Shown piece after piece: positions 5,401 to 57,235 of a stretch of 64,000 nt of DNA. The position numbers and the translations under genes are program-made. The DNA is from an uncultured Gammaproteobacteria bacterium (lineage in GTDB: Bacteria; Patescibacteriota; Patescibacteriia; Magasanikbacterales; UBA922), in NCBI GenBank assembly GCA_964344965.1, contig CAYFPJ010000001.1, forward strand, positions 86,771-150,770, read 5' to 3'. The notes beneath the pieces were generated by a model, which saw only the letters and a list, made by a program, of their open reading frames with translations, was not told the DNA's origin and did not search any database. Positions within the stretch are counted from its first letter, which is position 1; every line of letters starts with the position of its first letter.

Positions 5401-5969
5401 CACCCGTATTAGAGGTGGAAGGACTGAACCGAGATTCTTGGGTAGTAGTTGGTGGTGTTGTGGATGCTTTGAAAAAAAAGATTACTAAAAAAGGATCTGT
5501 AATGATGTTTGCTACTCTTCAAGATATGTCTGGTAGAATTGAAATGCTAGTATTCCCAAAAGCATATGAAGCTACTAAAGATTCATGGGAAGTAGGAAAA
5601 GTGATTTGTGTAGTAGGGAAGACTCCTCGGGAAGAAGGGGATAATAAGATTTTTGTAGAAAAAGCATATAATCTCTCTAAAGAAAGTATTGAAGAGGTCT
5701 CTCGTTATTTGTCTTTAGGAAGTGGTACTTCAAAAAAAGAAGAAAAAAAGAGTGACAATTTTGTCACTATCACACTCTCTCACGAAGAATTACAGGGTAA
5801 TGCAGAAAATTTGAAAAGTCTTTTTGAAGAATTTCCAGGAAACTACGATGTATACGTCCAAGTGGGTTCTAGTACTATCAAGGGGCAAACACAAATTGCC
5901 TGGTGTTCAGAATTGGAAAGCAGGCTAGTTGATTTGTTGGGTGATGAGAAGGTGGAGGTGAGTGGGTGA
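2496..5969 (+). CDS. dnaE: DNA polymerase III alpha subunit
   Basis: 1157 aa with an N-terminal PHP domain (HLHTHSHYSLL), a polymerase core and an OB-fold region. Confidence 0.92.
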   Translation: MNFVHLHTHSHYSLLRGLPKIKELVTAAKQKGFSAIALTDYGAMYGAIEFYKECQKQDIKPIIGFEAYLAPRNHTDKDSQHDKEFSNLVLLAKNYDGYRNLMKLCSISHLDGFFDGKPRVDKDLLRQYSKDIICLSGSILGNIPRLLKNNDLEGAKKEALELNEIFGPDNFYLEMQDHPGIEGQLDVNTKLTQMSKETGIPLVVSRNVHYLEPDQSEAQDVLVCIGEGWKIGQTDRVDYRHVDRSLNTGEDIASRFRHVPEAIENTVKIADMVNIEIELDKWHFAPVDLPKDKNADEFLRDEVYKYVGNFYDPVTEEIKERIEYELDIIKNKGYSPYFICVADYVRYAKDNGIVESTRGSAAGSVVSYVLGITTVDPIHFKLPFERFLNPFRPSPPDVDTDFADDRRDEMIEYVTNKYGVDKVAQIITFGSMAARASVRDVGRVLGFSYGFCDQVAKLIPIGAQGFPMTIERALKEEPDLKKLYDTNEDVKRLLGLAQQVEGCARHTSIHAAGVVISPTPLTDFTPVQRETGGERILTQYSMYDVESAGVLKNDFLGIRNLSILGKAVEIVEKTTGERVDIYNLPLDDIKTYEMISRGETMGVFQFGSSGMQRWIKELKPTNIDDIMAMVALYRPGPMDFIPEYIRRKHNPEVIDYPHPDIEEILEKSLGLLIYQDDIMLTAIKLAGYDWLEADKFRKAMGKKIPELMIEQEKKFKQGCVENKIPKDTVEDLWNRIKPFASYGFNKAHAASYGMVAYQTAHMKAHYPVQYMTAVLQAESHDADKISAIVGECRRIGIEVLPPDVNESFKSFAMISKPGEKGRIRFGLTAIKNVGDHICEVIYQERKKNGQYKSLEDFLERIEDKDLNKKSVESLAKTGALDCFGIDRGVLMANSENILGFIRQEKERRQTNQDSLFAGTSIAIDSKVRIVESAEATMDEKLVWEKELLGIYVSSHPFAYYQKFLGEKITPVLEVEGLNRDSWVVVGGVVDALKKKITKKGSVMMFATLQDMSGRIEMLVFPKAYEATKDSWEVGKVICVVGKTPREEGDNKIFVEKAYNLSKESIEEVSRYLSLGSGTSKKEEKKSDNFVTITLSHEELQGNAENLKSLFEEFPGNYDVYVQVGSSTIKGQTQIAWCSELESRLVDLLGDEKVEVSG

Positions 5970-5975
5970 TGGCAA

Positions 5976-6056
5976 TGTCATTCTGAGTGAAACGAAGAAT
6001 CTGTATTCAGGAAGACACCCTCTATAAGAAAGATCCTTCGCTGCGCTCAGGATGAC
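5976..6056. repeat. family B palindromic element (GTCATYCTGAGYG...AGATCCTTCGCTGCGCTCAGGATGAC)
   Basis: Imperfect inverted repeat; its arms match those at 21605-21685, 30190-30313 and 14908-14936. Confidence 0.6.
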
Positions 6057-6059
6057 AAA

Positions 6060-7001
6060 CTATAGATCATTCACCGATTTCACACTCTCATTGTTATGAA
6101 TTCTCTTGATCACTTCGGCAAATCTACTGGTGACAGATACTATCTCTGTGTCTCGCAGATTATGTCTGGCAATCGGAATGGTGTCTGTGGTGAGGAATTT
6201 TCTAATTGGTGAAGCATTCAATTTTTCTCCTGCCCCTTCACCAAGGTTGGCATGGATAAAGCAGGCATCAACACTCTTTGCTCCTGCTGTTTCTAATAAA
6301 TATTTAGCATCTTCGATTAAAGTCCCGCCACTGAGAGTCTCATCGTCTATGATGAGACATTTTTTTCCTTTCACATCACCAAGGACGCTTTTTATTTTTA
6401 CTTTTTCATCATTCCCAACTCTTCTTTTGTCCATCATGGCTATTGGTAGATGCAGGCTGTCAGCGTAGGGCTCTACTAGCTTGGCAGCTCCACTATCTCC
6501 AGCCACCAAGATATAGTTTTCCATATTACTATTTTCTTTTATATATTTCGTAATGTCTGGGGCGGCAATCAGATGGTCGCAAGGGATATTGAAGAAACCA
6601 TGGAGCTGAGGAGAATGCATCTCCATAATGATAACTCGATTGGCTCCAGCAGTCTGGAGCATGTCAGCCATTAGTTTGCCAGTGATACAGATTCTGGGCT
6701 GATCCTTCTTGTCTGATCTTGAGTAAGGGAAGTAGGGGAGGACAGCTGTGATTCTCTTGGCTGAAGCATCACGAAGCGTACGGATATAGATAAGAAGTTC
6801 CATGATATGGGCGTCGACTGGAGGAGTGTGAGATTGAATGACAAATACATCATCGCCGCGCACTGGTTCATCTACTGTGATGAATCTGTTTTCATTACTG
6901 AAGGTGAAAGATGTGGTCTTAGTTTCTTCTATGCCAAGATGCTCGCATATTTTTTTGGTGAATTGTTTGTGACTTGATCCTCCTATGATTTTGAGTGACA
7001 T
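6060..7001 (-). CDS. prs: ribose-phosphate pyrophosphokinase (PRPP synthetase)
   Basis: 313 aa with a PRTase-type fold and an N-terminus MSLKIIGGSSHKQF that matches the Prs family. Confidence 0.88.
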   Translation of the reverse strand: MSLKIIGGSSHKQFTKKICEHLGIEETKTTSFTFSNENRFITVDEPVRGDDVFVIQSHTPPVDAHIMELLIYIRTLRDASAKRITAVLPYFPYSRSDKKDQPRICITGKLMADMLQTAGANRVIIMEMHSPQLHGFFNIPCDHLIAAPDITKYIKENSNMENYILVAGDSGAAKLVEPYADSLHLPIAMMDKRRVGNDEKVKIKSVLGDVKGKKCLIIDDETLSGGTLIEDAKYLLETAGAKSVDACFIHANLGEGAGEKLNASPIRKFLTTDTIPIARHNLRDTEIVSVTSRFAEVIKRIHNNESVKSVNDL

Positions 7002-16545: not shown

Positions 16546-18696
16546 ATGTCTTTTCTGAATAGAGAACAACGTATTGATTTGTTTATGTCTCTTTTTACCG
16601 GACGTGAAGACGTGTATGCCTACCGTTGGGAAAGTAGGGGCGGAAAGAAAGGGTATGCTCCCGCGTACGCAGATAGTAACAAAAAACAATATATCCCTTT
16701 CACTAAAAATGTTGTAGAGCAACACCTCTTGGGGAATCAAACAATTGGGGTATACCCATTTCTCACATATAATACATCTAGATTTGTCGTAGCGGATTTT
16801 GATACACCGGACTGTCTGAATTTGCTAAAAAGACTGATAGAAGTATGTAGAGAACGTGGAATAGAGACTTACATTGAGCGATCTCAGTCAGGTAGCGGAT
16901 TTCACGCGTGGTGGTTTTTTGAACAAGCGTATCCTGCATACAAATCACGAAAGATATTTCTTACCCTTCTCAAAAATGCAGGAATCATAGATCAATTTGA
17001 TAAAACGGAAAGTTTTGATCGATTATTTCCCAACCAAGATTATCTTTCAGGTAAAGGGTTGGGTAATTTGATTGCTCTGCCATTGCAAGGTAGCTCAAGA
17101 AAAAGAGGTGCCACTGTATTTCTCGACCCTGAGAATGATTTTCGAGTAGCCAAAGATCAATGGGGATTGCTCCAAGGGATAAAACGCATATCTATGGAGA
17201 CATTGGATAAACTATTTGAGATATCCACACAAAATAGGGATTATTTCATTGAGAATGACACAACAATGTTAGACGCAGATACCGGAAGTGTCCCAATTAC
17301 AATATCGACTCATATTGTTATTCCTAAAAAAGCTGTATCAAAAAATTTTGCGAATTTTCTTTCAGATCATTTACATTTTTTCAATACAGAATACGCGGTC
17401 AAACAAAAGATGGGGCTGTCGACGCATAATACGGAACGATTCTTCAATACAATTGAAAAGTCTGATGAACATATTTTCCTCCCAAGAGGTTTCTTCTCAA
17501 AATTTACTTCTTTTCTTGGAGAAAATAATATCCCGTACACTATTCGTGATGCGAGAATAGAATTTGATTCTCCGACAAAGGTTTCATTATCGTGTCCTCT
17601 CTTTGTATATCAAGAGAAAGCAGTACATGCTTGCCTTTCACAAGATACAGGTATTCTTGTTGCCCCTCCGGGATCTGGAAAGACAATCATGGGTTTGTCT
17701 CTCGTCGCAGCCAGGAAACAACCGAGCTTGATTATCACTCACAGAAAACAAATTTATGAGCAATGGTTAGAACGTATCGAACAATTCATGGGAATATCTA
17801 AAAAGAACATTGGACAAATCACATCTACAAAGAAGGTTATACGATCTCCAATTACTGTCGCTACGATTCAGACACTTGCTCGGATGGTAGATACGATAAA
17901 AGACGAGATGGCCACACATTTTGGATGTATTATTGTTGATGAATGCCATCATATCCCTGCAAAAATGTTCAGACGTGTCATTACCCAGCTCAGCCCGAAA
18001 TATCTCTATGGACTTACCGCAACACCAATGCGCAAACATAATGACGAAAGACTAATGTTTTTGTATCTAGGAGAAAACATATATGAAGTCTCAAAGGAGG
18101 ATATAAAACAAAATAGCTCCAAAGATTCATCTGATGTGAAAATTTATGTTCAAGAAACTGAATTATCTTTTCCATTTACCGTTCACACGAGAAATTATCA
18201 GACTGTGTCAAAAATGCTTATTGCCGATACCAAGAGAAATGAACAAATCATTGCCGACGTGACTTCGGAAATTGAACAAGGTAAGAAGTGTTTGTTGCTC
18301 ACAGAACGGAAGGAACACGTAAAGATATTCCAGCTGTATCTTGGTAAAAAATATGAAACCATCACGCTCACCGGTGGAGAAAGGATTATGAAGAGAAAAC
18401 AGAAGATTGAACAGATCAAAAGTGGTCATTTTCAGGTGATTATTGCGACCGGACAGTACATAGGAGAGGGTATGCATTTTGACGATCTGGATTCGTTGTT
18501 TCTGGTATATCCGTGTTCATTTAGTGGAAAATTGACGCAATATATTGGCAGAGTATTACACAGCGATAATAGTTCAAAGAATGTATATGATTATAGAGAC
18601 AGCGACATTCCTTATTTCGAGAGGATGTTCAAAAAGAGGAAAAAATATTATGAAAAAGAGTATGGAGGTAATAGTAATATGAGAACATTGCTATGA
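16546..18696 (+). CDS. PrimPol (archaeo-eukaryotic-type primase-polymerase) domain fused to an SF2 DEAD/DEAH-box helicase
   Basis: N-terminal PrimPol motifs VVADFDTPD (DxD) and SQSGSGFHAWWFF. The helicase carries Walker A APPGSGKT, DECHH, TATPMR and a C-terminal QYIGRVLH motif VI. Confidence 0.75.
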   Translation: MSFLNREQRIDLFMSLFTGREDVYAYRWESRGGKKGYAPAYADSNKKQYIPFTKNVVEQHLLGNQTIGVYPFLTYNTSRFVVADFDTPDCLNLLKRLIEVCRERGIETYIERSQSGSGFHAWWFFEQAYPAYKSRKIFLTLLKNAGIIDQFDKTESFDRLFPNQDYLSGKGLGNLIALPLQGSSRKRGATVFLDPENDFRVAKDQWGLLQGIKRISMETLDKLFEISTQNRDYFIENDTTMLDADTGSVPITISTHIVIPKKAVSKNFANFLSDHLHFFNTEYAVKQKMGLSTHNTERFFNTIEKSDEHIFLPRGFFSKFTSFLGENNIPYTIRDARIEFDSPTKVSLSCPLFVYQEKAVHACLSQDTGILVAPPGSGKTIMGLSLVAARKQPSLIITHRKQIYEQWLERIEQFMGISKKNIGQITSTKKVIRSPITVATIQTLARMVDTIKDEMATHFGCIIVDECHHIPAKMFRRVITQLSPKYLYGLTATPMRKHNDERLMFLYLGENIYEVSKEDIKQNSSKDSSDVKIYVQETELSFPFTVHTRNYQTVSKMLIADTKRNEQIIADVTSEIEQGKKCLLLTERKEHVKIFQLYLGKKYETITLTGGERIMKRKQKIEQIKSGHFQVIIATGQYIGEGMHFDDLDSLFLVYPCSFSGKLTQYIGRVLHSDNSSKNVYDYRDSDIPYFERMFKKRKKYYEKEYGGNSNMRTLL

Positions 18697-18770
18697 TCGG
18701 CTTGTCATTTTTTTCAGATATCCACAGTGATATATCACATTTTTTTTAATTTTGTGATATATTTACAGGG

Positions 18771-19901
18771 ATGTATCATATTCTGCTATATATCAAATAT
18801 ATGCCAAAAACATTCAATCCAACAACTCCATATACACCTCCCACGCTTCCTCCCAAAGATATCAAGGCAATTGAGGCAGCATTAAGCGAACAGATCATGG
18901 AGGCGCGTATAGCCCTCGCTGAACTCAAAGGGTTTAGTGTGGCTGTGCCCAACCCATTATTACTTTTGTCTCCCGCCATCTTGCGTGAATCATTGGCCAG
19001 TTCTGAAATTGAGAATATTCACACAACGTTGATTGATGTCTTGGAAAACCAGTTGTTTCCTGAACGGGAGCAGCGAGAAAAAGACAAAGAAGTTTTGCGT
19101 TATCGTGATGCTATTCTTTGGGGCTTCGAACAAGTAGAAAAATTGGCTGTCTCAACCAGATTGATTCATGGAGTGCATCACAAATTGATGCCTACCATAC
19201 ACAGAGGTTATCGCTCACAGCAAAATACTATTGCTGATGGAGCAGGTCGAGCAATATATACCCCACCTACTGTACCCGTAATGAAAGAGTGTATGAGCGC
19301 ATGGGAAACGTTTGTGAATGATGACAAGCAATCAGTTGATCCTTTGGTAAAAGCCATTCTTGGGCATTATCAATTTGAATCAATCCATCCGTTTCCTGAT
19401 GGAAATGGCAGAACAGGACGTATTTTAATGATTTTAGAATTGATCCAAGATCGAATTCTTATCTGGCCAATTTTGTATATCAGCGGCTACATCAACACGC
19501 ATAAGAGGGAGTATTACTCGTCCCTTATCAATGTAACTAAGAAAAATGACTGGATAAGCTATATTCGTTTTATGTTGGTTGGATTTGCTGACCAAGCAAA
19601 AGAAACCAAAGATGTATTGCAATCTATTATGACGCTCTTTGATGCGTACAAAAAAGAATTAAAGGAAAAGAAAACACGGGTGTATTCCGCTGATTTGGTA
19701 GAGTCGCTATTTACATATCCAATTATCACCCCCACAAAATTGAGTGAGTCTCTCAATATCCATTATACTACTGCCACGAGACATCTTGAGGTACTCAAGA
19801 AGTTAACACTCTTGGAGGAGAAGAAAGTTGGAAAGTACCGATTTTTTATCAATGTCAAATTACTTGAGGTATTATCCCCGAAGAAAGCAAAGAAGAATTG
19901 A
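18771..19901 (+). CDS. Fic/Doc family protein (putative AMP-transferase) with N-terminal inhibitory SxxxEN motif
   Basis: Canonical Fic motif HPFPDGNGRTGR. SSEIEN matches the [ST]xxxE[GN] inhibitory helix of class II Fic proteins. The C-terminus is wHTH-like. Confidence 0.8.
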   Translation: MYHILLYIKYMPKTFNPTTPYTPPTLPPKDIKAIEAALSEQIMEARIALAELKGFSVAVPNPLLLLSPAILRESLASSEIENIHTTLIDVLENQLFPEREQREKDKEVLRYRDAILWGFEQVEKLAVSTRLIHGVHHKLMPTIHRGYRSQQNTIADGAGRAIYTPPTVPVMKECMSAWETFVNDDKQSVDPLVKAILGHYQFESIHPFPDGNGRTGRILMILELIQDRILIWPILYISGYINTHKREYYSSLINVTKKNDWISYIRFMLVGFADQAKETKDVLQSIMTLFDAYKKELKEKKTRVYSADLVESLFTYPIITPTKLSESLNIHYTTATRHLEVLKKLTLLEEKKVGKYRFFINVKLLEVLSPKKAKKN

Positions 19902-50965: not shown

Positions 50966-51038
50966 GCTTTTTGTGGTTAGGATAATGACTGTCTTAAGGT
51001 TAAAACTGTCAAGCACGTCAGACTTATTTTGCAACTCT

Positions 51039-51154
51039 GTCATTGCGAGGAGAGAGTCGGAGCCAAAGCGAAGAAGAACGACGTGGCAATCTCATCGTTT
51101 TTACACAAAACCCATGAGATTGCCACGTCGTTCTTTCAGACTCCTCGCAATGAC
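51039..51154. repeat. family A MITE-like element
   Basis: TIR GTCATTGCGAGGAG / CTCCTCGCAATGAC with an internal inverted repeat ACGACGTGGCAATCTCAT / ATGAGATTGCCACGTCGT. Confidence 0.7.
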
Positions 51155-51183
51155 GAAATAGTTAGCGGATTTTATAATCTATA

Positions 51184-52708
51184 TATGGATAAAAAAGAAA
51201 TTTTCAAAAAAATTTATCATGTTTCTGATGAGACGTATACGGACGTCTATGTTGTTGGTGGGTATGTGAGGGATGAGTTGCTTGGGGTTGAAAATAAGAA
51301 AGATATTGATTTTGTTGTAGCAGGAAGTGGCCTTAAGTTTGCTACCCAGCTTTTTACCAATTTTGATGAAGAAGATACTAGGCTTGTCGAGTTTCCAGAT
51401 TTTGATACTGCTCGGATCGTTTTTTTGGTTCCTCAAGAGAAAGATAAAAAAACAAAAGTAGTAATTGGTGGACAAGGTCTGGAAGAAGTGGAGATTGATC
51501 CATCCGATGAAATAAAAAAGAAGGTTTTGTTTGAAATAGAATTTGCTGGAGCAAGAACAGAGGAGTATAACGACAAATCTCGTAAGCCAAAAGTACAATC
51601 AACAACTCTTGAGGATGATTTGAGACGCCGTGATTTCACAGTTAATGCAATGGCTCAAAAAGTTGAAAAGAATGGCAAATTGGGAAAGATTGTGGATTTA
51701 TTTGATGGTCAAAAAGATTTAAAAAATAAAATTCTCCGTACACCATTAGATCCAGACGAGACTTTTGTCGATGACCCGCTTCGTATGCTCCGAGCAACTC
51801 GTTTTGCAGCTCAGCTCGAGTTTGCTATTGAGCCGAAGACCCTCCAGGCAATCAATGAAAACAGAAAGAGACTGAAAATAGTTTCCAAAGAAAGAATTCA
51901 AGAAGAAATTATCAAATTATTCGCTTCTGTCCAGCCTTCAGTTGGTCTTTTTATTCTCTATCAAACTAAGTTGATTGACGAATTCATGCCAGAAGTATCC
52001 AAGCTTGCTGGGGTGGAAGAAGTCAAAGGGTATAGTCATAAGGATAATCTGTCTCATACTTTTGCCGTGGTCGACAATATCGCTGAGAATTCAGACAAGC
52101 CATTACTTAGGTTCGCTGGTCTAATGCACGATATTGCCAAGCCAGATACTAAGAAATTTACCAAGGGGAGAGGTTGGACCTTTGATATGCATGAGCATTT
52201 GGGTAAGAAAATGACCAGAGATATTTGTCGTCGACTGAAATTTAGCAAAAAAGACACAGAGTATCTGGCCAAGTTGGTCCGCTATCATCTCCAGCCGATT
52301 GCTCTTATGGACAGAGGAGTGACAGATAGTCCAGTTCGTCGTTTAGTCATTGATGTTGGAGAGGATTTGGATGATTTGCTTGTCCTTTGTCGGGCTGATA
52401 TTACCACTGGTAATCAAAAGAAAAAGGCCAGGAGATTAAAAAATTATGATATTCTAGAAAAGCGAATTGTCGAGCTGATAGAGAAAGACAAGCTCAAATC
52501 ATTCCAATCCCCAGTACGCGGAGAAGAAATTATGGAGCTCACAGGTCTCAAGGCTGGTCCGACTGTGGGGAAAATAAAAAAACGCATTGAAAATGCTATT
52601 CTTGATGGTGAGATTGGTAATGATTATGAGGAGGCGAAGAATTTTTTGGAAAGCATTCGAGAGGAGTATGTGAGTGAGGCGGAGGAGTGGGAGAGGGGTA
52701 GTGGTTAG
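51184..52708 (+). CDS. cca: CCA-adding tRNA nucleotidyltransferase with HD domain
   Basis: Head domain GGYVRDELLG...DIDF and the HD motif LMHDIAKP. The start is set at the ATG at 51184, because the longer ORF would begin inside the family A repeat. Confidence 0.8.
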
Positions 52709-52747
52709 ACCAAAGTTTATCTTGAACTATAGAAAACTACAACTTTC

Positions 52748-52843
52748 GTCATTGCGAGGAGCGACGAAGGAGCGATCTATCTCATTGTTTTCTCTACTAC
52801 CACTGAGATTGCCACGTCGTTCTTTCAGACTCCTCGCAATGAC
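52748..52843. repeat. family A MITE-like element
   Basis: Same TIRs and orientation as the copy at 51039-51154. Confidence 0.7.
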
Positions 52844-52860
52844 GAATTAATTTTGAAAAT

Positions 52861-52895
52861 AAAAAAGCGCTGTGAATGCAGCGTTTTTGTTTTTG
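52861..52895. terminator. bidirectional terminator hairpin (AAAAAAGCGCTG tgaa TGCAGCGTTTTTG)
   Basis: An A-run, a hairpin and a T-run between cca (+) and the minus-strand RNA gene cluster. Confidence 0.6.
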
Positions 52896-52902
52896 TGTTG
52901 TG

Positions 52903-53035
52903 TGGACCGGCCCGGTTCGCACACTCTCTTCCGGAAGGATAGGTACTCCTTCGAGGGCGCCCCTCCCCCTTGGGAGAACCTGGGTTTGAGAGTGGCGAAC
53001 CGGTCCGGTCTGGTTACCGGAGGCGGGGTCATATC
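52903..53035 (-). ncRNA. GC-rich structured element of unknown identity (candidate small RNA)
   Basis: Long-range pairing GACCGGACCGGTTCGCCACTCTC / GAGAGTGTGCGAACCGGGCCGGTC on the minus strand encloses about 60 nt containing a TTCCGGAAGGA motif. There is no ORF, and GC is far above the local average. The strand is uncertain. Confidence 0.35.
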
Positions 53036-53042
53036 TATGCTA

Positions 53043-53116
53043 TGTGTGCGACAGGATTCGAACCTGCGACCTCCCTCATACCAAGAGGGCGCTCTATCCG
53101 CTAGAGCTACGCACAC
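53043..53116 (-). tRNA. tRNA-Thr (anticodon GGU)
   Basis: Minus strand: acceptor GTGTGCG/CGCACAC, D GCTC/GAGC, anticodon stem CCCTC/GAGGG with loop TTGGTAT, T-arm GCAGG TTCGAAT CCTGT, discriminator A. Confidence 0.8.
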
Positions 53117-53147
53117 AAACATGATGACCCCGCCTCAACGGCGAGTA

Positions 53148-53254
53148 TTGCGGGGGCAGGAGTCGAACCTGCGAGCCCTTGGAGAGTCTCGGTTTTGAAT
53201 CTCCAAGGCACCGGGTCATGAACCCGGCGGCCAAACCAGCTGGCGTTCCCCGCG
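53148..53254 (-). tRNA. initiator-like tRNA-Met (anticodon CAU) with an approximately 31-nt hairpin inserted in the variable region
   Basis: Minus strand: 5' CGCGGGG ... CCCCGCA A 3' as in E. coli tRNA-fMet, including the C1xA72 mismatch. Anticodon stem CCGGG/CCCGG with three G-C pairs and loop TTCATGA. T-arm GCAGG TTCGACT CCTGC. The extra hairpin CCTTGGAGA ... TCTCCAAGG lies between the anticodon and T arms. Total length is 107 nt. Confidence 0.55.
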
Positions 53255-53303
53255 ACAACTGGCTTTTACCCTAGCGATATCTCTCATTTTTGTCAAGTAT
53301 AAT

Positions 53304-56335: not shown

Positions 56336-57235
56336 ATGACAAATGATATAGATAACAAAACACAAAAAAAGACACGGGATATTTCAATAGTTACAGGAGT
56401 TTTTGTTGAAAATGAAGATAATGAAGTATTGTTTGTAAAAATGCCAAAATGGGGAGACAGATGGGGTATTCCGGGAGGGCATCTTGATAGAGGTGAGGCA
56501 CTAGAAAAGGCTGCACTCCGTGAATTGAAAGAAGAGACAGGAGTTGATGCAGACAAGGCTGAATATATTGGATACACAGAGATGGCAGAGCCAAAAGATT
56601 TCCACAAAAGCAAACATTTTATTAGCTTTCAATTTAAAGTAAAAGTAAAAGGTAGACCGAAGCTTAAATTAGAAAAGAGAGAATTGACTGATCATCGGTG
56701 GATGACACTAGAAGATGCCCGAAAGCAAGATGATCTAAATTCCATCATGGTGAAGACTTTGGAGATGATGTCAGATCAGGTGAAAGAAGAAAACATTGAT
56801 TATAAAGATAAATGGCTTCGTGCTCAAGCAGACTATTCCAATCTACAAAAAGAAATTTCTGAAAAAAGAAGCCAATGGGCAGAGATGAGTGAGTGGCAGA
56901 TTCTCGAAGAGTTTATCCCAGTCTATGATAATTTCAAAAAAGCATTTGACAATGATCAGCGAGCAATGATCAACGATCAGAAGCTACAGAATTGGGTTAT
57001 CGGGGTAGAATATATTAAAAAACAATTTTCGGACGTACTTGCAAGTCATGGTGTTGAAGAGATAGAAACAATCGGGGAAACATTTGATCCAAATTTTCAT
57101 GAGTGCATGAGTGAAGAAAGTTCAGATGAGCATGAAGACGGAGCGATCATTCGGGAAGTAAGTTCTGGGTATAAGAAAGGGGGGCGGGTATTGAAAGTTG
57201 CGGGTGTGGTTCTCAATAAAAAAAATAAAGAATAG
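56336..57235 (+). CDS. grpE: NUDIX hydrolase domain fused to nucleotide-exchange factor GrpE
   Basis: Residues about 45-68, GGHLDRGEALEKAALRELKEETGV, form a perfect Nudix box (Gx5Ex7REUxEExGU). The C-terminal 145 aa (WLRAQADYSNLQKEISEKR, FIPVYDNFKKAF, GETFDPNFHE, GYKKGGRVLKVAGVVL) align with GrpE. It is a single continuous ORF. Confidence 0.8.
   Translation: MTNDIDNKTQKKTRDISIVTGVFVENEDNEVLFVKMPKWGDRWGIPGGHLDRGEALEKAALRELKEETGVDADKAEYIGYTEMAEPKDFHKSKHFISFQFKVKVKGRPKLKLEKRELTDHRWMTLEDARKQDDLNSIMVKTLEMMSDQVKEENIDYKDKWLRAQADYSNLQKEISEKRSQWAEMSEWQILEEFIPVYDNFKKAFDNDQRAMINDQKLQNWVIGVEYIKKQFSDVLASHGVEEIETIGETFDPNFHECMSEESSDEHEDGAIIREVSSGYKKGGRVLKVAGVVLNKKNKE

Follow-up and report, generated by a model that had tools for sequence, protein, structure and literature searches.

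An initiator-type tRNA gene with an apparent oversized, class II-like variable arm in Ca. Magasanikbacteria

We describe a tRNA gene of Ca. Magasanikbacteria that, judged by its sequence, is a bacterial initiator tRNA carrying an oversized class II-like arm. Few RNAs in biology are as strongly conserved as initiator tRNAs, which the textbook view assigns to class I with its short variable loop; here a perfectly paired hairpin occupies that loop in a gene lying in the window (the whole 64-kb stretch of DNA analyzed). The reading that we put first, tentatively and at a shade below even confidence, is that the gene encodes a working, expressed initiator tRNA(fMet) of this lineage, in which a recently gained 32-nt palindromic insertion has been retained as a class II-like arm. 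Coordinates of the gene, of its companions in a compact RNA operon and of the phage genes that most resemble it are collected in Table 1.

Table 1. Positions of the long-arm tRNA gene, the elements accompanying it and the phage tRNA-Met genes compared with it
Feature	Position	Strand	Description
Initiator-type tRNA-Met(CAU) gene	53148..53254	minus	107 nt; Rfam RF00005, MFE cloverleaf, ARAGORN after hairpin deletion
Anticodon CAU	53218..53220	minus	in loop UUCAUGA, with U32 and G37
Extra hairpin	53177..53208	minus	32 nt: 9-bp perfect stem CCUUGGAGA/UCUCCAAGG, 14-nt loop UUCAAAACCGAGAC
Possible promoter	53268..53296	minus	perfect -35 TTGACA 53296-53291, 17-nt spacer, weak -10 TAGGGT 53273-53268; found by eye
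Canonical tRNA-Thr(GGU)	53042..53117	minus	ARAGORN; Rfam 59 bits; no CCA encoded
13-bp perfect inverted repeat GAGGCGGGGTCAT/ATGACCCCGCCTC	53020-53032 + 53124-53136	no strand	brackets tRNA-Thr(GGU)
RNA X, GC-rich structured RNA	52905..53010	minus	~106 nt; ~23-bp closing stem, 2-3 internal hairpins
Terminator-like hairpin	52868..52883	minus	CGCTGCATTCACAGCG then CTTTTTTATT (T-run); closes RNA operon
Phage tRNA-Met(CAU) genes with extra arm	L060 5388-5475; L074; L057 5376-5463; L061 3938-4024 (-); L071 5410-5501; L073 3009-3105		87-97 nt; GGG/CCC anticodon stem

The gene escapes routine annotation, since over the whole window neither ARAGORN nor an Rfam run with default filters reports it. ARAGORN misses the intact gene but calls a tRNA-Met(CAT) once the hairpin is removed, and does so in five of five variants in which 32–34 nt were deleted in silico, which leaves the insert as the only reason for the omission. 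The Rfam family RF00005 matches end to end (model positions 1–71) with a score of 33.9 bits, where the gathering score is 29; the E-value is 4e-5 when 1 kb is searched and 0.0026 when the whole window is searched with all families, and under laxer filters the Rfam alignment assigns ~36 nt to an insert within the variable region. The minimum-free-energy (MFE) fold, at −57.5 kcal/mol (z = −4.98), is a cloverleaf with a single further arm, and none of 200 shuffles folds as well; the signal thus exceeds chance. The sole other Rfam match over this region, to YrlA, reaches 24 bits where the gathering score is 69 and is driven by the tRNA arms; this rules out a different RNA with a better alternative fold, which the preliminary description had named as the result that would overturn its interpretation. 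That interpretation, an initiator-type tRNA-Met of 107 nt with the variable loop replaced by a long hairpin, is supported by the Rfam match, the fold, the ARAGORN calls after deletion and the alignment described below, and the gene can be assigned to the minus strand.

With RNA position n corresponding to window coordinate 53255 − n, the 5′ half reads CGCGGGG-AA-CGCC-AGCUGGUUU-GGCC-G-CCGGG-UUCAUGA-CCCGG-U-G up to the extra hairpin, and the hairpin and 3′ half continue as CCUUGGAGA-UUCAAAACCGAGAC-UCUCCAAGG-GCU-C-GCAGG-UUCGACU-CCUGC-CCCCGCA-A; no CCA is encoded. The hairpin (CCTTGGAGA-(14 nt)-TCTCCAAGG, RNA positions 47–78) is placed between U44-G45 and GCU-C48, where class II tRNAs have their variable arm, and brings the variable region to 38 nt in total, a net gain of 33 nt over a 5-nt loop. 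Its 9-bp stem and 14-nt loop at this site had been recognized before, although the size of ~31 nt then given needs correcting to 32 nt. Folded on its own, the hairpin has a z of −4.0.

The determinants reported for bacterial initiators comprise the 1x72 mismatch, G2:C71, C3:G70 and three G:C pairs at 29–31:39–41 (PMC6393288), together with R11:Y24 and, for MetRS, the CAU anticodon (PMC9976931), and at the level of sequence the long-arm tRNA possesses all of those listed in this literature. Its acceptor end combines C1xA72 (the 1:72 pair is marked as non-canonical by Rfam) with G2:C71, C3:G70 and A73 (5′ CGCGGGG, 3′ CCCCGCA+A), the anticodon stem CCGGG/CCCGG supplies G29:C41, G30:C40 and G31:C39, and the loop UUCAUGA identifies the anticodon as CAU. 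The mismatch and both ends, the three consecutive G-C pairs, the anticodon and a G at position 37 had all been noted in the preliminary description, and every one of them is seen here. When the hairpin-deleted sequence is aligned with 11 canonical bacterial initiators, the three anticodon-stem G:C columns are invariant across all 12. The stems are Watson–Crick paired at 2–7:66–71, at five of five positions in both the anticodon stem and the T-stem and at three of four in the D-stem, and G18, G19, the T-loop UUCGACU and G15/C48 are retained. In the D-stem, A:U at 11:24 (found in the other 11 initiators) has become G:C in the Rfam register and G:C at 12:23 has become C:G, so that both sides are changed and pairing is kept; such two-sided replacement suggests structural constraint rather than decay.

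The tRNA core is less orthodox. Relative to the 11 canonical initiators it carries A8 (for U8), C10xC25 (G10 replaced by C), U21 (for A21), U44 (for A44) and G37, all but the last being additions to the preliminary description, and positions 8, 10:25 and 21 are nearly invariant among the others; the class I combination of U8, G10:C25 and A21 with a 4–5-nt variable loop is therefore replaced by A8, C10xC25, U21 and 38 nt. The MFE fold suggests possible pairing of C25 with G45 and of G26 with U44, which would cluster the core anomalies at the junction of the new arm with the tRNA body, a clustering that fits co-adaptation of arm and core and is no proof of it. G37, present where A37 would be expected, is rare rather than disqualifying: a scan of metagenome contigs for G37 initiators with variable arms of any length returned six bacterial genes (L040, L041, L042, L043, L050 and L053), four of them with the loop UUCAUGA, and the remaining matches were due to chance. 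All six are true initiators of ordinary length with short variable loops, from which it follows that G37 initiators recur in nature; U32, like G37, occurs in rare normal initiators too.

On the minus strand, the long-arm tRNA is preceded by a -35 and a weak -10 element and followed by tRNA-Thr(GGU), the 106-nt structured RNA X and a terminator-like hairpin. The possible promoter ends 13 nt ahead of the tRNA 5′ end, and a promoter scan makes no call there because the -10 matches at three of six positions only. tRNA-Thr(GGU) follows on this strand after 30 nt and is probably co-transcribed with the long-arm tRNA; the inverted repeat around it may act as a processing stem, the tRNA sitting atop 13 bp in the precursor. 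RNA X, the last element ahead of the terminator, has a predicted fold of −62.9 kcal/mol (z = −5.9). Its comparison with Rfam yields no family at a meaningful score (edge-overlapping matches lie far under their gathering scores), an exact scan of viral contigs gives no match, and it is absent from the syntenic loci of relatives; RNA X may represent a small RNA not described before that is transcribed together with the tRNAs. The 5′ half of the long-arm tRNA likewise has no exact match in viral contigs, and BLAST against phage and plasmid records returns generic tRNA-arm similarity alone. With no relative of this 5′ half or of RNA X in these viral contigs and phage and plasmid records, a phage origin of the operon was rejected.

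A palindromic element of ~100–135 nt, with terminal arms TTCGTCATTGCGAGGAG and core GACGTGGCAATCTCA, occurs three times in the window (~2295–2430, ~51036–51157 and ~52745–52846), one copy abutting the terminator of the RNA operon, and in its sequence appears to behave like a miniature inverted-repeat element. The extra hairpin is unrelated in sequence to the copy adjoining the operon. A second copy of the hairpin was found neither in the window nor in any fetched locus, even with three mismatches allowed or with short-word BLAST, and this weakens a mobile mini-insertion as its origin.

The surrounding sequence is ordinary chromosome (pheT, dnaE, tsaD, nadABCE, frr, GlyRS, tpiA, metK, uppP, gpsA, cca, yidC and hrcA-grpE-dnaK-dnaJ), and YidC homologues place the organism in Ca. 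Magasanikbacteria, within Patescibacteria/CPR. The RNA operon sits in the spacer between yidC and its upstream neighbor cca, the gene for the CCA-adding enzyme. Synteny extends over 20 kb in three relatives (YidC 86%, 63% and 60% identical), with the order tRNA-Thr(UGU)-tRNA-Tyr-metK-uppP-(gpsA)-cca-yidC-band7-hrcA-grpE-dnaK. Their cca-yidC spacers measure 40–170 nt and are free of tRNA genes, initiators included, and of anything like the operon, and their loci contain no initiator within ~10 kb on either side; the position of the operon is thus specific to this genome.

Three other loci in the window merit separate mention. The ORF of the CCA-adding enzyme (51029–52708, plus strand) spans 559 aa from a TTG at 51029 and starts inside a copy of the palindromic element; as the relatives' enzymes have 483–505 aa, the true start probably lies ~50 codons downstream. 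GrpE (56336–57235, plus strand; 299 aa) has a NUDIX hydrolase domain fused at its N terminus, an arrangement also present in assembly L031, and the GrpE proteins of the three relatives (177–193 aa) have no NUDIX domain. At 16546–19901 (plus strand), next to tRNA-Glu, a 716-aa fusion of a TOTE conflict-system primase (AEP) and a helicase precedes a Fic/DOC protein, and this segment looks like a defence island.

We scanned 185,579 species-representative genomes, a set from which the source genome is absent, for an anticodon arm of the initiator type that is separated by 22–52 nt from a T-arm downstream. None of the 30 matches is related to the window gene: 12 are assembly duplications or adjacent T-arm-like sequences, 6 are N-masked scaffolds, 9 are archaeal tRNAs with inserts and 3 are odd bacterial cases (L017, L022 and L025), the artefacts among them being tandem duplications of tRNA segments or N runs. 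With the patterns used, neither the ~186,000 species genomes nor the metagenomes collected at JGI yielded a counterpart, and within the limits of those patterns the long-arm initiator, on sequence evidence, is so far unique among cellular genomes. The absence of insert-bearing homologues means that there is no covariation, and hence no sign of selection, to be read from the hairpin. A limited literature search, which is weak evidence of absence, found neither a long-arm initiator nor short tRNA inserts in CPR bacteria. Two of the odd bacterial cases are informative in themselves. An Eggerthellaceae MAG (L017 1240–1345, CAMOUE010000036.1) contains a 104-nt initiator-like tRNA with a ~29-nt insert at 47/48; apart from the window gene it is the one cellular bacterial case with an insert at this site, and it could be an artefact. 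A Kapaibacterium MAG (L025) contains a canonical 74-nt initiator at 5672–5745 and, 350 nt away, an aberrant 98-nt tRNA-Met(CAU) at 6026–6123 with a rearranged 5′ half plus an insert, demonstrating that normal and aberrant copies do co-occur.

The absence of the operon from the relatives' locus raises the possibility that it was acquired recently and duplicates a normal initiator elsewhere. According to this alternative, the main rival, which we regard as unlikely though it deserves serious weight, the window holds a redundant or disabled copy: a recently acquired or duplicated cassette of tRNA-fMet, tRNA-Thr and RNA X, in which the long-arm gene would be a young pseudogene or a dispensable accessory tRNA beside a short-loop initiator encoded elsewhere. 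The confinement of the cassette to the cca-yidC spacer of this genome is what such a history would leave, and the substitutions of U8 by A, G10 by C (giving C10xC25) and A21 by U at near-invariant core positions would suit a gene released from use, yet every stem pair other than 10:25 is intact and the initiator determinants are all kept. The lack of an insert-bearing orthologue in the species genomes and JGI metagenomes agrees with a redundant or disabled copy, the Kapaibacterium pair provides a precedent for one, and the palindromic repeats (three in 64 kb, one of them against the operon) point to a repeat family active in the genome; an insertion into a dead gene, however, could land anywhere, and this one occupies the single structurally permissive site. 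The adjoining tRNA-Thr(GGU) is canonical and the unit has its own terminator, which further counts against a decaying cassette, as does the small size of CPR genomes, which usually hold one copy per tRNA. A second canonical tRNA-fMet, which the preliminary description had said would mark the long-arm copy as a pseudogene, was sought in the 64-kb window alone, and there the long-arm tRNA has the only initiator-type anticodon arm.

It is improbable, in our estimation, that the hairpin is an intervening sequence, either spliced out with ligation of the flanks or nicked in its A/U-rich loop to leave two pieces held together by the 9-bp and acceptor stems. CPR rRNA genes are known for intervening sequences, and the ordinary tRNA-Met that ARAGORN recognizes after deletion of 32–34 nt is compatible with removal of the hairpin. 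Archaeal initiators with inserts of 25–40 nt between the anticodon arm and the T-arm (L003, L007, L012, L015, L020, L021 and L030) show that excisable sequence of similar size can occupy the same region, but the archaeal and window genes part company at the splice site. We enumerated bulge-helix-bulge (BHB) motifs, defined by a pair of 3-nt bulges on either side of a 4-bp helix at the exon–intron junctions; the archaeal positive controls L007, L020 and L030 give clear motifs with inner helices of 5–10 bp, whereas the insert in the window gene gives none that is coherent, its two geometric matches being incoherent and one of them destroying the T-stem. An archaeal-type intron is rejected on this basis. 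Group I introns in bacterial tRNA genes have a ribozyme core of ~200 nt or more and usually interrupt the anticodon loop (PMC3984707); the insert, at 32 nt, is ~10x too short, lies outside that loop and matches no Rfam intron family. Among ~39 window ORFs scanned there is no gene for a splicing endonuclease, RtcB or RNase III, a result that says little beyond the window. A stem of 9–10 bp is, moreover, short for RNase III. Three readings had originally been left open for the hairpin (long arm, intervening sequence and mobile mini-insertion), and the second and third have lost ground, the one for want of a BHB and the other for want of a second copy.

That the hairpin is an assembly or amplification artefact absent from the DNA of the organism is scarcely credible: chimeric reads can yield palindromes and all the assemblies come from one study population, but the identical 107 nt are present in three assemblies produced by different pipelines (the window, L031 from ENA ERZ930070 and L032 from Logan ERR2281801, the latter two from separate sequencing runs), the hairpin is not an inverted copy of adjacent sequence, and the genuine artefacts of our scan look different, consisting of tandem tRNA-segment duplications or N runs.

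We therefore return to a working long-arm initiator as the preferred reading. A small palindromic insertion would have landed in the variable loop of the initiator gene of the lineage, and the long-arm tRNA, tRNA-Thr(GGU) and the 106-nt structured RNA would be transcribed as one precursor whose ends are trimmed, CCA presumably being added by the CCA-adding enzyme since none is encoded. MetRS would charge the tRNA via the CAU anticodon and A73, the formyltransferase would accept it via C1xA72, G2:C71, C3:G70 and R11:Y24, and the three G:C pairs would permit selection in the 30S P-site. The hairpin would be kept on the mature tRNA and project from the back of the L-shape in the manner of the variable arm in Leu, Ser and Tyr tRNAs; because the variable loop is the one place where a protruding helix can be accommodated without disturbing the acceptor, anticodon and elbow surfaces, the tRNA could still work. 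The hairpin might simply be tolerated, or it might provide a lineage-specific protein handle.

Several lines of evidence support a working initiator. The insert is a perfect helix, placed at the only site that bears long arms in natural tRNAs, and the 64 kb contain no other initiator-type anticodon arm, no splice motif at the insert and no repeat family for the hairpin. The intact determinants and stems, the apparently compensatory D-stem changes and the predicted operon with its canonical tRNA-Thr and terminator point the same way, and phage long-arm initiator-like tRNAs and engineered V-arm tRNAs (PMC7590224) lend plausibility by analogy. Counting against it are the lack of an insert-bearing homologue and hence of covariation, A8, C10xC25 and U21 at near-invariant positions, the absence of the operon from the relatives' locus and the marginal activity of V-loop aptamer fusions made from ordinary E. 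coli tRNAs (cited in PMC7590224). A bolder version would have the long-arm tRNA as the sole initiator of a free-living (non-phage) bacterium, with a class II-like arm larger than any natural Leu, Ser or Tyr arm retained and accommodated by MetRS, the formyltransferase, IF2/IF3 and the P site, and with a co-adapted core (A8, an unpaired C10 and C25 free for G45); this we hold with clear doubt, stopping short of calling it unlikely.

If the tRNA works, the formyltransferase, the initiation factors and the P site must tolerate a 32-nt helical appendage, a property that would be useful for engineering tagged or orthogonal initiators and would add to the departures of CPR bacteria from the standard translation machinery. 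If it is in addition the sole initiator, then together with the phage long-arm cases it would imply that the class I body plan is not obligatory for initiators. A disabled copy would instead be a clear example of palindromic insertion into a tRNA gene, with little wider importance. Standard annotation by ARAGORN or with default Rfam filters misses the gene, and genomes of this kind would accordingly be scored as having no initiator tRNA.

Set beside known systems, the gene combines features that are otherwise kept apart. With the class I bacterial initiator tRNA(fMet) it shares C1xA72, G2:C71, C3:G70, A73, R11:Y24, the three G:C pairs, CAU and the 7/5 acceptor/T-stem layout, and it differs in having a variable region of 38 nt rather than 5 nt along with G37, U32, A8, C10xC25, U21 and U44. 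With class II tRNAs (Leu, Ser, Tyr, Sec) it has in common a helical arm, here of 9 bp, between 44/45 and 48 with few unpaired bases ahead of C48; its initiator-Met anticodon CAU, discriminator A73 and C1xA72 are, in contrast, not those of Leu, Ser, Tyr or Sec tRNAs. To our knowledge, a 9-bp stem with a 14-nt loop exceeds natural class II arms. SerRS uses G73 (PMC7609411), whereas the window gene has A73. Archaeal initiators with BHB introns share the 25–40 nt of extra sequence between anticodon arm and T-arm, and differ from the window gene in their BHB motif (L007, L020 and L030) and in its bacterial host, which is not known to have a splicing endonuclease. The Eggerthellaceae gene L017 is likewise an initiator-type tRNA gene of a cellular bacterium in which extra sequence enters the variable loop at 47/48, but the sequence of its insert is unrelated and the fold less regular, U1-G72 takes the place of C1xA72, CCA is encoded, and ARAGORN makes no call.

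The closest parallels in form come from phages. A scan of IMG/VR with the same pattern recovered several unrelated phage tRNA-Met(CAU) genes of 85–104 nt with extra arms, of which the examples in Table 1 share with the window gene the GGG/CCC anticodon stem, CAU and an extra arm at the variable position. Two of them have U1xU72 (L060 and L074, with A73) and one has U1xC72 (L071). Arrays L060 and L071 each contain two Met genes, a short copy with an elongator-type stem and a long-arm copy with three G:C pairs and a 1x72 mismatch. Phages therefore do encode initiator-like tRNAs whose extra arm is class II-like, if smaller than that of the window gene. We found no description of these phage genes in the literature searched, a limited search. 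They show no sequence kinship to the window gene, their arms are mostly of 4–7 bp, none has C1xA72, and they lie in phage arrays rather than in a chromosome. Three further IMG/VR contigs (L062, L066 and L070; 77–162 kb) share one 104-nt tRNA-like gene with a CAU anticodon, identical in all three, whose extra arm has 7 bp and whose 41-nt gap is near the size of that in the window gene; its acceptor stem is fully paired and elongator-type, and ARAGORN makes no call. The L071 and L060 arrays (L071 2334–2423 and 2448–2541; L060 1648–1737) also contain unusually long versions of other tRNAs that normally have short loops, namely Ile(UAU) (90 nt), Pro(UGG) (94 nt) and Lys(UUU) (90 nt), as well as a tRNA with the stop-codon-reading anticodon UUA and one called as Pyl(CUA). 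These sequences suggest that large phages commonly encode tRNAs with extra arms as well as recoding tRNAs.

Engineered tRNAs offer a functional counterpart. tRNAs bearing hairpin aptamers on the V-arm stay active in translation (Mukai 2020, PMC7590224), and V-loop aptamer fusions of ordinary E. coli tRNAs, as they are cited in that paper (PMC7590224), had marginal activity only. The active constructs resemble the window gene in that a foreign hairpin is placed at the variable arm and translation is still possible; they are artificial elongator or suppressor chassis that had long arms beforehand, whereas the window gene appears to be a natural initiator descended from forms with a 5-nt loop.
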